Shown: in pieces, positions 19,758 to 25,817 of the stretch
Layout of the letters: every line of letters begins with the position of its first letter
Position numbering within the stretch: the first letter of the stretch is position 1
Source: a virus
Taxonomy: Duplodnaviria; Heunggongvirae; Uroviricota; Caudoviricetes
Virus record (IMG/VR): IMGVR_UViG_648276648_000009
Span: 1-50,997 of that record
DNA length: 50,997 bases
Direction: 5' to 3' (one strand)
Position numbers and translations under genes: made by a program
The notes under the pieces: model-generated
What the model saw: only the letters and a program-made list of their open reading frames with translations
Told to the model about the DNA's origin: nothing
The model's database searches: none

Positions 19758-22700
19758 CTATATTTTTCCGCCTACGCCTTTAAACTTCTCAATAAACGAG
19801 ACGATTTTCTGGAAAACTGCCTGTTTTTTCGTTTTATATTGCGGATTCAACGGACTAAGTTTTGGTAATGTTTCGTTTAATTCTGTGCCATTTTCGGTGG
19901 CGTATTCGCGTTTTAAAGACGTGCGAATATAGCGTTTTGCTGCTTCTTCATTGAGGTTTTCTTCTTTTATCAATGCTTCTGCTTCACGTTGCTGTTCGCG
20001 TTGAGCAAACGTAAAGAATGCCTCAATGATACTGGCTTTGTCTGGTAAATCATCCAGGTTCGTTTGCTGAATAAAATCGACCACCAGGCCCTCTTTCGCC
20101 CGGTTTCCCAGGCTTGAACGAATTAAGCGTTTGACCTCTTCGATCATTTCGCCCTTGCCTTTATTTTGTCTGTTGTGTTCGAAAATCAGTCCAAGGATAT
20201 AATCCAGGTTTATTTCCTGAGACTTCAGCAAATCGACCTCAAAAACTACATCATCCCAGTCAGTGGTTGATTTCTCTTTTTTCTCAGCTTCTTTCTCACG
20301 GCGCTGCCAGTCGCGAATATCGTTATAGGCAGAACGATAATCCTGAATCTTGCGATCAGCAGGGAGACGAATTGTTTGCAATTCAGCGAACTTTTCATCA
20401 TCCACATAATGTTCTGCTTTGAATTTTTCTACCGCAACAGGATCGCTAAGATCGATTTGTTGCAGGGCTTTTAGCGTGGCAAATTCATCATAGTTTTGCA
20501 GGATGTTCTCGGCACGCAGGTATTCGCCAAACAGTTTAACGAAGTCTTTCTTCTCTTTTTCACTTTCAATACTGGTAGGGTCAGGGAACCGTTGTTCCAG
20601 TTCTGAAACTACTGTCATGAAGCCGCGTTTAGCTTCACCAGTGGCAGCATCAGTAAAGCCTTCCATATACTCTGCATAACTCTTTTCTAAAACCACATTT
20701 TTGGTATTTTTGTCACCAAACAGCGTTATGGCATCAATGGTTGAGCGTTCCAGATCCCGGAACGTGACGATATTACCGAAGGTTTTAGTCGCGTCATAAA
20801 TGCGGTTGGTGCGGGAGAATGCCTGCATCAGGCCGTGAAAACGCAAGTTTTTATCGACGAATAGCGTGTTCAATGTTGGAGCGTCGAAGCCGGTTAAAAA
20901 CATCCCAACGACAATTAACAGATCGATATCCTGATTTTTAACCCGTTGGGCTAAATCACGATAGTAGTTCTGAAAACCGTTACTGTCGGTACTGAAGTTA
21001 GTTTTAAAATAGCTGTTATATTCACGAATTGCAGCGTCGAGAAACTCTTTAGCACTGCTGTCCATTGCGCTGGTATCAAAAGTTTCATCGGAAATTTCAC
21101 CAATGGCATTTTGTTCTTCATTAGCGGCAAAGGAGAAGATTGTCGCAACACGTAGTGGTTTATAGGTAGCAGATTTATAAGCGGCTTCCTCTTGTAACCG
21201 TTTAAACGTCGCGTAATAGGCTTTCGCGGCATCCACGCTGCTCACTGCCAGCATGGCATTAAAACCTTTGGAGCCAGGGAAAGTACGGTGGGTTTTCTGG
21301 CGGAAGTTATTCAGGATATATTGCGTAATTTCCTGAATACGCATGGGATGAAGGAACGCCTGCTGATTTTCAGCCGCACTCAGTTTTTTCTCGTCAGTTT
21401 CTGTCTCTAAAGACTTAAACTGTGGCCGCACATCGTTGTAGTCCACCTTGAATTTAAGCACTTTTTCATCACGAATCGCATCGGTAATAACATATGAATG
21501 CAATTCACGGCCAAATACGCTGGCGGTCGTTTCTGAGCCTAAGGCGTTTTCCGGGAAAATAGGTGTGCCGGTAAAACCAAACTGATAATAGCGTTTGAAT
21601 TTCTTCTTCAGGTTTTTCTGTGCTTCTCCAAACTGGCTGCGGTGACATTCATCAAATATAAACACCACTTGCTGATTGTATACAGGCAGGTCGCTTTCTG
21701 CTTTCATCAGGTTATTAAGTTTCTGAATAGTGGTGACGATAATTTTGTTATCGTCCTTATCCAGATTTCGTTTAAGACCTGCGGTATTTTCCGAGCCGTT
21801 GACGCTGTCTGGCGAAAAACGCTGATATTCCTTCATGGTCTGGTAATCGAGGTCTTTCCTGTCGACCACAAAGAAAACTTTATCAATAAAGTCCAGTTCT
21901 GTTGCCAGACGCGCGGCTTTAAAGCTGGTCAGGGTTTTACCGGAACCCGTGGTGTGCCAGATATACCCACCGCTTTCCGGTTTTGACCAGTTCTTCGCTG
22001 TAAAGGAGCTCTTAATTTTCCACAGAATGCGCTCGGTGGCGGCAATCTGGTACGGTCGCATCACCAGTAGCGTCTGACTACTGTCAAAAACGCTGTAGTT
22101 CACCAGAACATTCAGCAGAGTATGTTTCTGGAAAAAGGTAGCGGTAAAATCTTTGAGGTCTTTAATCAGCGTGTTGTCTGATTTCGCCCAGTTCATGGTG
22201 AAGTCAAAACTATTTTTATCGCGCTTTGTGGTGTTGGCAAAGTAACGGGTATCGGTGCCGTTAGAAATGACAAACAGTTGCAGATACTTAAACAGGGAAT
22301 TTTCGCTGTTAAAACTCTCTTTACTGTAACGATGTATCTGGTTGAAAGCCTCACGAATCGCCACGCCGCGCTTTTTCAGTTCGATTTGCACCAGAGGCAA
22401 GCCATTAACCAGGATAGTTACGTCATAACGGTTAGCGTGAGAACCTGCCTGTTCAAACTGCTGGATAATCTGCACTTTGTTGCGCATGAGATTCTTTTTA
22501 TCTATCAGATAGATGTTCTCAAGACGCCCGTCGTCAAAAATAAAGTCGCAAATATAGTCGATATGGATTTTACGGGTCTTATCCAGAATGCCATCGCTCG
22601 GGTTGTCCAGATACTGCTCCGTGAAACGCCGCCACTCGCTGTCATTAAACACCACACCATTGAGGCTCTGAAGCTGTTCCCGAACATTGGACAGCATAGC

Positions 22701-22934
22701 CGACTGAGATTTTACGGATATAAATTCATAGCCCTGATTCCGCAGGTCCTGAATCAGTTCACGTTCCAGGTCCGATTCACTCTGGTAGCTGTCGCCTGTT
22801 GGCTCAGCTTTGATGTACTTATCAAGGACGATAAAGTTATTGGATTCAGCAATAGTGTGTGTCTGATGAGTCATAGCGCATCCTTTGTGCCGTCTGGCAA
22901 GGGCCGGAAGGGAGTTAAGGGTGACTTCCGGCAC
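19758..22934 (-). CDS. hsdR: Type I restriction enzyme R subunit (HsdR), EcoR124-like type IC
   Basis: 1058 aa; helicase motifs [19 protein letters not shown]; downstream of hsdM-hsdS. Confidence 0.92.
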
Positions 22935-24264: not shown

Positions 24265-25817
24265 TTCTGCACCTCGCAGCCTTCAATTTCAGCCACAATC
24301 GCATCAATATCTTTACGCAACTGGTCGATTTTGCTGACCGTGATTTTCAGCTCTGCATTCAACTCAGCGATATCGATAATTTCGCGAGTATCTTTCGCTT
24401 CAACATAGCTGCTCACCGACAGGTTATAGTCATTAGCAACAACGGTCTCAAACGCGACTGATTTCGCCAGATGAGCAACATCTTCCTTGCTGGCAAATAC
24501 CTGCATAATCTGTTCGATATGGGCATCGGTCAGGATATTGTTGTTGGTCTCTTTTTTGAATAGTTCGCTGGCGTCAATAAACTGAACTTTTGTATCTGTT
24601 TTATGTTTAGACAACACCAGAATGTTTACGGCAATGGTGGTGCCAAAGAACAGGTTCGGTGCCAGTGAAATCACGGTTTCGACATAGTTATTATCAACCA
24701 GATACTGACGGATTTTCTGCTCCGCGCCGCCACGGTAAAAAATACCCGGGAAGCAAACAATCGCAGCACGACCTTTGGCAGAAAGATAGTTCAGCGCATG
24801 TAGTACAAAGGCGAAGTCAGCTTTTGATTTGGGGGCCAGAACGCCAGCCGGGGCAAAACGTTCATCGTTAATCAGCGTCGGGTCATCGCTGCCAATCCAT
24901 TTCACCGAATACGGCGGGTTAGAAACGATGGCATCAAACGGTTTTTCATCTCTGAAGTGTGGTTCAGTCAGCGTATTGCCCAGCTTGATATCAAACTTGT
25001 CGTAGTTGATGTTGTGCAAAAACATGTTCATACGCGCCAGGTTATAGGTCGTATGGTTGATTTCCTGACCAAAAAAACCTTCTTCGATGATATGGTCATC
25101 AAACTGTTTTTTAGCCTGCAACAACAGCGAACCGGAGCCTGCTGCCGGGTCGTAGATTTTGTTAACGTGGGTCTGCCCGTGCATAGCCAGTTGTGCAATC
25201 AGCTTAGAGACGTGCTGCGGTGTAAAGAACTCGCCGCCGGACTTACCGGCATTCGCGGCATAGTTAGAAATCAGGAACTCATAGGCGTCACCGAACAGAT
25301 CAATCTGATGTTCGGTGAAGTCACCAAGTTTTAACCCTTCAACCCCTTTCAGAACCGCAGCCAGGCGGGCATTTTTATCTTTAACGGTGTTACCCAGGCG
25401 GTTACTGGTGGTATCGAAATCAGCAAACAAACCTTTGATGTCTGCTTCTGAAGGGTAGCCGTAAGCAGAACTTTCGATAGCAACGAAGATACTGTTTAAA
25501 TCTGCATTCAGTCTGTCATTGGTATTTGCTTTCGCAGCTACGTTGCAGAAAAGCTGGCTTGGGTAGATGAAGTAGCCTTTGGTTTTGATGGCATCGTCTT
25601 TAATGTCATCAGTAATTACGCTGTCATCCAGTGCTGCATAACAGATGCTGTCATCATCGGCTTCCATATAGCTGGAAAAATTTTCGCTGATAAAACGATA
25701 AAAAAGCGCGCCCAGAACGTACTGCTTAAAATCCCATCCATCGACTGAACCCCTGACATCGTTAGCAATTTGCCAGATCTGGCGATGAAGTTCTGCACGT
25801 TGTTGAATACTTGTCAT
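24261..25817 (-). CDS. hsdM: Type I N6-adenine methyltransferase subunit (HsdM)
   Basis: 518 aa; AdoMet motif [10 protein letters not shown] and catalytic NPPY. Confidence 0.92.

Follow-up and report, generated by a model that had tools for sequence, protein, structure and literature searches.

A type IC restriction-modification operon on a P1-like phage-plasmid with a probably recent third TAEL repeat in its specificity subunit

The stretch of DNA analysed here (50,997 nucleotides, IMG/VR record IMGVR_UViG_648276648_000009; hereafter, the window) appears to carry an intact type IC restriction-modification system of the EcoR124 family on a P1-like phage-plasmid, in which the specificity subunit, HsdS, has recently gained a third TAEL repeat that would lengthen the spacer of its target by one base pair. 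We give this reading a probability of about 0.88. In type I systems, a complex of two HsdM subunits and one HsdS subunit methylates a bipartite target, and the addition of HsdR yields an ATP-driven translocating endonuclease. Each of the two exchangeable target-recognition domains (TRDs) of HsdS reads one half-site, and how far apart the TRDs lie is fixed by the helix that joins them, in which the TAEL repeats are found. The enzyme family, the control of the spacer by the repeats and the association of type IC hsd loci with P1 DNA are all already known, and the system is in these respects an ordinary, well-understood one. What is new, from comparison of the sequences, is a widespread 418-aa HsdS allele carrying exactly one additional TAEL. 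The features of the locus are collected in Table 1.

Table 1. Features of the hsd locus and its surroundings, in coordinates of the window.
Feature	Position	Strand	Description	Basis
pmgS	17652-18914		One flank of the cassette	
pap	18987-19493		Same flank as pmgS	
P1 C1 operator Op88/OpmgT (ATTGCTCTAATAAGTCT) and predicted PpmgT promoters	19493..19537	+		P1 annotation via alignment offset
Hairpin	19542..19564	-	10-bp stem followed by TTTTATT; candidate hsdR terminator	Terminator scan
Non-P1 cassette	19683..26298		Replaces P1 pmgT-pmgU-pmgV	BLASTN of window against P1
hsdR	19758..22874	-	Restriction/translocase subunit, 1038 aa counted from ATG at 22874	
hsdS-hsdR intergenic region	22875..22995	-	121 nt; holds promoter-like site	
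hsdS	22996..24264	-	Specificity subunit, 422 aa	Pfam Methylase_S, two stretches
TRD2, C-terminal target-recognition domain	23149..23589	-	HsdS residues ~226-372	
Central conserved region, coiled-coil spacer helix D1 with repeats	23590..23790	-	Identical to EcoR124 besides the extra TAEL	
12-bp tandem array	23667..23706	-	Unit TAAGCTCAGCGG, 3.3 copies	Tandem Repeats Finder, 100% matches, score 80
TRD1, N-terminal target-recognition domain	23791..24207	-	HsdS residues ~20-158	
hsdM	24261..25817	-	Type IC N6-adenine methyltransferase subunit, 518 aa	Pfam and PDB 7bst_D match
Region upstream of hsdM	25818..26298	-	481 nt of cassette; presumed hsdM promoter region	
70-aa ORF	26121-25909	-	Inside the 481-nt stretch upstream of hsdM	
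hot	about 26962-27201		Opposite flank, in the upf/hot region; lxr also on this side	

The operon consists of three co-directional open reading frames on the minus strand (25817-19758), all of which are full length, and it is intact. The hsdM product matches the Pfam families N6_Mtase (2.5e-121) and HsdM_N, and its residues 1-518 pair with residues 3-520 of the EcoR124 M protein (PDB code: 7bst_D; 1142 bits). The mechanically defined hsdR frame (22934-19758) opens at a GTG at 22934; translation most probably begins at the ATG of position 22874, which gives a protein of the same length as EcoR124 HsdR. From this start, residues 1-1038 align with residues 1-1038 of the EcoR124 enzyme (PDB code: 2w00; 2288 bits) with 11 substitutions within the first 1010 residues; the TGSGKT motif, the FDECH motif and the nuclease region are unaltered in the alignment. 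The Pfam domains of HsdR are HSDR_N, SWI2_SNF2/ResIII, T1R_D3 and EcoR124_C (1.5e-71), and PADLOC type I models match the operon. In line with the EcoR124 layout, hsdM and hsdS are coupled, here by a 4-nt overlap between the hsdM stop and the hsdS ATG, and hsdR follows behind a separate intergenic region. The Pfam architecture and the EcoR124 alignments thus agree with an earlier reading of this DNA, made from the sequence alone (hereafter, the sequence-only reading), which had proposed a complete EcoR124-type hsdM-hsdS-hsdR set.

The same reading had placed three tandem TAEL repeats in the centre of HsdS, and the 12-bp array was verified with Tandem Repeats Finder. It encodes HsdS residues 188-199 as three TAEL units (codons at 23703-23668). 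A perfect 40-nt array of period 12 amounts to 28 consecutive self-matches, for which the chance expectation is ~4^-28 per position and ~1e-12 for the window, so the array is not a chance feature. The central conserved region that contains it was found in ~838 PLSDB plasmids and in 1264 of 5426 complete E. coli genomes.

The N-terminal, central and C-terminal conserved blocks of HsdS are near-identical to those of EcoR124 HsdS (PDB code: 7bst_A), whereas TRD1 pairs poorly with its EcoR124 counterpart in the same alignment. Both TRDs appear to circulate as modules: among the 120 best homologues, TRD1 (at least 80% identity) is joined to another TRD2 in 68 and TRD2 (at the same threshold) to another TRD1 in 42, and TRD1 occupies the C-terminal slot in several alleles. 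The nearest solved relative of TRD2 is the S subunit of M. jannaschii (PDB code: 1yf2). A search for the recognition sequence by TRD similarity gave no assignment, the only solved relatives being EcoR124, with unrelated TRDs, the S subunit of M. jannaschii and, as weak matches, EcoKI TRD1; a literature search turned up no methylome. Likeness of the TRDs to those of type IC enzymes, which had been put forward as a test of the assignment, is the wrong criterion, as divergence from the EcoR124 TRDs is expected of interchangeable modules. The TRDs do differ from those of EcoR124, yet the conserved regions of HsdS, together with HsdR and HsdM, are still type IC, and it is on these aligned parts of the proteins that family membership rests.

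The history of the third repeat is suggested by a close twin. With one TAEL removed, the HsdS of the window is 100% identical to a 418-aa protein present on 91 contigs (P0001) and to the HsdS of pSvP1_F, a plasmid of E. coli O157 SvETEC. Over the 6,616-nt cassette (99.8% identity), pSvP1_F differs by one SNP and one 12-nt unit, the latter appearing as a clean 12-nt gap. The ETEC1731 plasmid (NZ_CP122822.1) is a further carrier of the two-repeat allele. Since the twins differ by a single SNP in 6.6 kb, the repeat change would be very recent relative to point mutation. Every other copy of this hsdS allele carries two repeats, and the three-repeat form was found in 0 of the 5426 complete E. coli genomes. 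The two-repeat state is likely ancestral for the allele, because a lineage with 96.4% identity (L032) also has two. The three-repeat state of this element is read from a single assembly, and the exact 422-aa HsdS is missing from a collection of 15 billion proteins.

Repeat number varies more widely in nature. Among intact IMG/VR loci, two repeats were counted in 30, three in 16 and one in a single locus; these counts refer to the 47 of 80 loci in which hsdS was located by regular expression, the others being more distant relatives or truncated contigs. PLSDB holds ~358 two-repeat and ~340 three-repeat records, approximate figures that derive from identity bands. A four-repeat count in PLSDB by synthetic query was discarded, as BLAST joined pieces and two-repeat records scored 100%. 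Four of 107 sampled alleles are polymorphic, with two or three repeats or with one or two. An invariant repeat number, which the sequence-only reading had named as evidence that would count against it, is contradicted by these four alleles and by the two-repeat twin.

These data bear on a different reading, that the allele with three repeats is fixed and that repeat number shifts on an evolutionary time scale only, with no adaptive role. The array holds only three 12-bp copies, 103 of the 107 sampled alleles have a single repeat number, and two repeats as well as three are frequent and stable states among many plasmids. We nevertheless consider this reading unlikely, since the pSvP1_F twin points to a very recent change, the four polymorphic alleles are independent, an IS1-disrupted hsdS pseudogene has drifted to five copies (5.3 by count), and interconversion of EcoR124I and EcoR124II is on record (PMC3874165). 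It is very improbable that the operon has fallen silent or is decaying, with no effective restriction or methylation. Related loci do decay, as in plasmid C of E. coli S30, with an IS1-disrupted hsdS and a truncated hsdM, and in the ETEC1731 plasmid region, with an IS1203 insertion; the window, however, preserves three full-length frames and the hsdM/hsdS overlap, and its HsdR has few substitutions relative to the crystallised enzyme, with the visible motifs unchanged. Least credible is an assembly or sequencing artefact in place of the common two-repeat allele: the exact protein is unmatched elsewhere and the other copies all have two repeats, but the extra sequence amounts to a single whole unit that keeps the frame and matches the other copies at 100%, three copies of this DNA unit are often found in related hsdS genes, and errors of a 12-bp unit are, in our judgement, atypical of current assemblers.

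In the favoured reading, that of an intact system with a recently gained repeat, the extra 12-bp unit would have arisen from a two-repeat ancestor by unequal crossing-over or slippage. The enzyme would recognise the same two half-sites as the two-repeat form, separated by one more base pair, and its specificity would differ from that form as EcoR124II differs from EcoR124I. We infer that the enzyme is active, that the +1 spacer effect applies to its TRDs and that a repeat was gained and not lost. EcoR124I has two repeats and recognises GAAN6RTCG, EcoR124II has three and recognises GAAN7RTCG, and their interconversion by unequal crossing-over at the TAEL repeat is documented (PMC3874165). The +1 rule was established with the TRDs of EcoR124 and EcoDXXI, hybrids of which, with two or three repeats, have spacers shifted exactly as predicted (PMC3874165). 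The proposal that the spacer can be switched is supported by this work and by the otherwise identical two-repeat twin, and switching here would run through an already known mechanism. Because type IC enzymes methylate with no preference for hemimethylated DNA, and because restriction alleviation operates through control of assembly (PMC12707154), a safe switch of specificity is plausible. With three copies of a 12-bp unit the array is short and would switch only rarely, unlike a mechanism of fast phase variation. A phase-variable shufflon or SSR phasevarion was rejected, as there is a single hsdS and the sole array is made of three in-frame 12-bp copies; no inverted hsdS fragments or long arrays were found within 19400-26600.

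The closest known systems are EcoR124I and EcoR124II, with which the window shares the gene order hsdM-hsdS-hsdR and HsdR and HsdM subunits that are nearly identical over their full length. In repeat number it resembles EcoR124II, and its two-repeat sibling is the counterpart of EcoR124I. Unlike in EcoR124, which is borne by the conjugative plasmid R124, the carrier is a P1-like phage-plasmid, and both TRDs are different, so the half-sites would not be GAA and RTCG. EcoDXXI (type IC, TCAN7RTTC) and EcoprrI, also type IC, naturally have three repeats as well (PMC3874165), and the recorded carrier of EcoDXXI is a conjugative plasmid. EcoprrI differs in having the anticodon nuclease gene prrC embedded in its operon. 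No prrC-like gene is present between hsdS and hsdR of the window, where the gap is only 121 nt and holds no ORF, and an EcoprrI-like system was rejected.

P1-like phage-plasmids are documented to be hypervariable in the pmg region near pap, and the presence of P1 DNA at type IC hsd loci is reportedly the subject of a paper by Tyndall et al. from 1997. Homology to P1 stops at 19682 (P1 84482) and restarts at 26299 at 82% identity (BLASTN), so that 1.44 kb of P1 (pmgT, pmgU and pmgV) has been swapped for 6.6 kb. The upfM-hot stretch is kept and is only ~82% identical to P1. An insertion between pap and hot, as had been proposed, is therefore right as to position and wrong as to a simple insertion, pmgT-pmgV being replaced and upfM-hot retained. 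The G+C content dips mildly in the cassette (0.40-0.45, versus 0.46-0.51 in its neighbours); direct or inverted flanking repeats were sought at its edges and none were found. The 70-aa ORF upstream of hsdM has no Pfam match. As in other P1-flanked type IC loci, hsdR borders the P1 pap-downstream segment and the other side leads to the P1 upf/hot...phd-doc region. Linkage to pap was seen in 24 of the 62 IMG/VR loci retaining an hsdR match, and 22 sampled P1-like loci contain 17 TRD pairs. The arrangement of type IC hsd genes next to P1 DNA is not new. The GenBank annotation of P1 points out stretches homologous to sequences that flank the hsd loci of EcoDXXI and R124/3; for EcoDXXI, the DNA downstream of hsd shares 96% identity with the segment that follows pap in P1, and the upstream DNA 98% with P1 phd-doc. 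A type I system in place of the pmg genes was already described for pSvP1 (Venturini et al. 2019, PMC6906374). pSvP1 and pSvP1_F share with the window the replacement beside pap and an identical TRD pair; pSvP1_F differs in having two TAEL repeats instead of three and in the copies of IS91 between its cassette and hot, an element that the window lacks.

The sequence-only reading had also credited the element with its own anti-type-I DarB-like gene. This is not supported, as darB is not intact. Homology to P1 DarB (full length 2255 aa) is limited to approximately residues 412-2255 (99.2% identity) and the remaining ORF corresponds to residues 426-2255, IS26, which starts at 50536, having cut off ~411-425 N-terminal residues. 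Loading of DarB into the capsid needs its N-terminal 30 residues (PMC9024508), and this targeting signal is missing because IS26 cuts the gene.

Several putative regulatory signals lie in or near the operon. A promoter-like site (TTAACA-18-TATTTT, 22968-22939) in the hsdS-hsdR gap is a consensus match only, and in the promoter scan such sites were no more frequent than in shuffled sequence. The hairpin beyond hsdR is likely to be the hsdR terminator, which would thus be sited within P1-homologous DNA; it is kept in 18 of 80 scanned IMG/VR loci. Conservation of Op88 was seen in 24 IMG/VR loci, and the PpmgT promoters, which are predicted and C1-repressed, have come to face the 3' end of hsdR, a gene convergent with them. 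Prophage induction might then drive antisense transcription across hsdR from PpmgT and, together with recurrent TAEL changes, turn the pap-hot locus into a regulated specificity module that diversifies itself, a speculative extension that we regard as improbable. Were it true, restriction activity would be coupled to the lysis-lysogeny state and the pap-hot locus would be more than passive cargo.

The two cassettes, with two versus three TAEL repeats and one SNP apart in 6.6 kb, provide a clean natural example, and suggest that the EcoR124I/II type of specificity change is still occurring in P1-like phage-plasmids that circulate in livestock-associated E. coli. The pair would also be a handy test of the +1 spacer rule for a new TRD combination. 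Diversity of specificity at this locus bears on barriers to the transfer of phages, plasmids and resistance genes, and on the choice of host for P1-like vectors.

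Three adjacent open reading frames are called on the minus strand of the window between 19758 and 25817 (see table), and together they make up the complete hsdM-hsdS-hsdR set proposed in the sequence-only reading. The alignment of the hsdR product with HsdR of EcoR124, the type IC prototype, begins at an ATG at 22874 (MTHQTH...) preceded by AAGGA, giving a protein of 1038 aa. The Pfam architecture is that of a complete type I set (N6_Mtase and HsdM_N in HsdM; two stretches of Methylase_S in HsdS; HSDR_N, SWI2_SNF2/ResIII, a T1R_D3-like domain and EcoR124_C in HsdR), and PADLOC type I models also match the operon.

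A search of solved structures bears out the proposed EcoR124-like type IC assignment. Residues 1-1038 of HsdR align with 1-1038 of EcoR124 HsdR (PDB code: 2w00; 2288 bits), with 11 substitutions visible over the first 1010 residues and with the same helicase motifs (TGSGKT, FDECH) and N-terminal nuclease region. Over residues 1-518, HsdM aligns with the M protein of EcoR124 (7bst_D; 1142 bits), and HsdS can be aligned end to end with the S subunit (7bst chain A). The suggested comparison of HsdS with EcoR124 gave a divided answer: the N-terminal, central and C-terminal blocks are identical, whereas both target-recognition domains (TRD1 and TRD2, N- and C-terminal) are essentially unrelated. 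This pattern is the hallmark of type IC membership combined with a specificity other than that of EcoR124. No characterised enzyme with the window TRDs was found, solved structures included. An EcoprrI-type locus, which carries prrC, can be rejected, as the 121-nt gap between hsdS and hsdR leaves no room for that gene. Chain A of 7bst is labelled 'EcoR124II specificity protein', yet it has 404 aa and two TAEL units in the alignment, the EcoR124I-type repeat number.

Features of the window and of one related locus
Feature	Position	Strand	Remarks
hsdM	25817-24261	minus	518 aa
hsdS	24264-22996	minus	422 aa; 4-nt overlap with hsdM
hsdR	ORF end 19758; mechanical start GTG 22934	minus	
Repeat array in hsdS	23667-23706		perfect 12-bp unit TAAGCTCAGCGG, 3.3 copies
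70-aa ORF	25909-26121	minus	just upstream of hsdM, within the cassette
Small ORF	19592-19678		GGAG ahead; 28-aa hydrophobic peptide MNTAFKIIMAAIYFWLFSIIFGGIVAHG
Hairpin	19564-19542	minus	10-bp stem, then T-run; within P1-shared segment
C1 operator Op88 and predicted PpmgT promoters	19493-19537		retained from P1
ORF6N + KilAC/ANT antirepressor-like protein	41718-42836		
HTH_3 protein	42968-43441		157 aa
250-aa protein	43457-44209		PADLOC JukA model 1e-65; Pfam DUF3944
Three tRNA genes	4352-4505 and 6133-6208		Asn-GTT, Thr-TGT, CAT anticodon
darB ORF	45004-50496		1830 aa; P1 DarB residues 426-2255, 99.2% identity
E. coli S30 plasmid C (NZ_CP010234.1)	L004 (retrieved locus) 4042-4105		decayed type IC locus adjoining phd-doc

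The window is a P1-like phage-plasmid, and its three tRNA genes presumably belong to the P1 backbone. BLASTN homology to P1 (98.3%) runs to 19682 (P1 84482), just past pap and the Op88/PpmgT region, restarts at 26299 upstream of upfM with 82% identity through hot, and is back at 97% from lxr onward. The hsd set thus lies between pap and hot as described, but it is a replacement rather than an insertion: 6.6 kb (19683-26298) stand in place of P1 pmgT-pmgU-pmgV (1.44 kb). No flanking repeats marking the cassette were found, and the G+C dip across it is mild. The 70-aa ORF, in the same orientation as hsdM, has no match in Pfam. Such an arrangement is widespread and has been described before. At least 80% of a 7.5-kb query is covered by ~200 PLSDB plasmids and two phage records; according to notes in the P1 GenBank record, the segment downstream of pap shares 96-98% identity with the DNA that lies downstream of hsd in EcoDXXI and R124/3, and phd-doc shares 98% with the DNA on the upstream side of EcoDXXI hsd. 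The region pmgT-humD is one of eight hypervariable regions in P1-like phage-plasmids (PMC9603915), and a type I restriction-modification cassette occupies the place of the pmg genes in pSvP1 (PMC6906374).

On the 3' side of hsdR, the hairpin could plausibly act as the terminator of this gene. Op88 and the predicted PpmgT promoters now aim into hsdR, which is convergent to them, at its 3' end, with this strong minus-strand terminator-like structure just beyond Op88/PpmgT; induction-dependent antisense transcription into hsdR from the retained PpmgT is speculation and seems improbable. By the P1 notes, the segment that contains the 28-aa ORF shares 98% identity with the DNA lying downstream of hsdR in R124/3, and a 44-aa hypothetical protein is annotated at its site in pSvP1_F.

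The idea that the type I system is accompanied by the element's own anti-type-I DarB-like gene does not hold for this copy. DarB homology can be traced by tblastn back to residue 412, at 50538, and an IS26 terminal repeat (GGCACTGTTGCAAA) begins at 50536, with IS26 transposase sequence taking up the remainder of the window. As IS26 cuts darB, leaving residues 412-2255, the capsid-targeting N-terminus is missing; the gene is disrupted and very likely non-functional for antirestriction. Where P1 carries res-mod (EcoP1I), the window has three other genes (40585-44273), those for the antirepressor-like, HTH_3 and 250-aa proteins of the table, and no JukB match was found among the ORFs tested.

The array identified by Tandem Repeats Finder encodes TAEL x3 at HsdS residues 188-199. 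By our own arithmetic, a perfect 40-nt period-12 array is expected in 51 kb with a frequency of ~1e-12, so it is far beyond chance and the reported three central TAEL repeats are confirmed. The 12-bp repeat sits in D1, the first connecting helix; EcoR124I has two copies (GAAN6RTCG) and EcoR124II three (GAAN7RTCG), a change arising through unequal crossing-over, and EcoDXXI and EcoprrI naturally have three (PMC3874165). In EcoR124/EcoDXXI hybrids with two or three copies the spacer shifts exactly as predicted (PMC3874165).

Repeat number varies among relatives. In hsdS genes extracted from 47 of 80 IMG/VR loci, perfect TAEL units number two in 30, three in 16 and one in 1; the 22 P1-like loci that adjoin pap and keep hsdS intact comprise 15 with two units and seven with three, and 17 different TRD pairs. 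When the IMG/VR genes were pooled with the 120 best protein homologues, four of 107 TRD-pair alleles were polymorphic (two for 2 versus 3 units, two for 1 versus 2). The type IC central region occurs in ~838 PLSDB plasmids, with approximate counts at ≥95% identity of ~340 for a three-repeat and ~358 for a two-repeat query. One versus two perfect units are seen in some type IC HsdS alleles (homologues P0052-P0061 versus P0068-P0075; P0005 versus P0007), including some on chromosome-sized contigs, so the natural range reaches below the classical two/three pair. In E. coli S30 plasmid C, where hsdM is truncated and the hsdS pseudogene is split by an IS1-like element, the array has drifted to 5.3 perfect copies of the same unit. 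The TRDs are also shuffled: among the 120 closest HsdS homologues, at ≥80% identity, 68 share only TRD1, 42 only TRD2 and three both. TRD1 (88-100% identical) occupies the C-terminal slot in P0059, P0078, P0081, P0107 and P0112, showing that TRDs move between positions and not just partners.

The cassette has a two-repeat twin on plasmid pSvP1_F (NZ_MN510446.1), with an hsdS of 1257 nt versus 1269 nt in the window. The alignment has a clean 12-nt gap within the array and, over the rest of the 6,616-nt cassette, a single SNP at 22779. Removing one TAEL from the window HsdS yields exactly the sequence of the pSvP1_F protein and of homologue P0001 (418 aa, on 91 contigs); a variant with 2 substitutions (P0002) is on 21 contigs. 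The exact 422-aa protein was not found in a collection of 15 billion proteins. No three-repeat form of the allele occurs among complete E. coli genomes, the best match being an ETEC1731 plasmid with the 12-nt gap, and a more distant lineage of this allele (L032, 96.4% identical) has two repeats too. The simplest explanation for these alignments is that a two-repeat ancestor recently gained one unit.

By analogy with EcoR124I/II, the window enzyme would recognise the half-sites of the P0001 enzyme but with one more base pair between them, from which we infer a distinct specificity. Such a change would be survivable because hemimethylated DNA is not preferred by type IC methyltransferases and restriction alleviation works via control of HsdR assembly (PMC12707154). 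The feature is real and was correctly identified in the sequence-only reading: a standard type IC operon in a documented hypervariable locus of P1-like elements, with a textbook specificity mechanism. The one new detail is the three-unit version of a widespread two-repeat allele, previously unrecorded in exactly this form. The window cassette and its near-identical twin provide a clean natural example of an EcoR124I/II-type switch.
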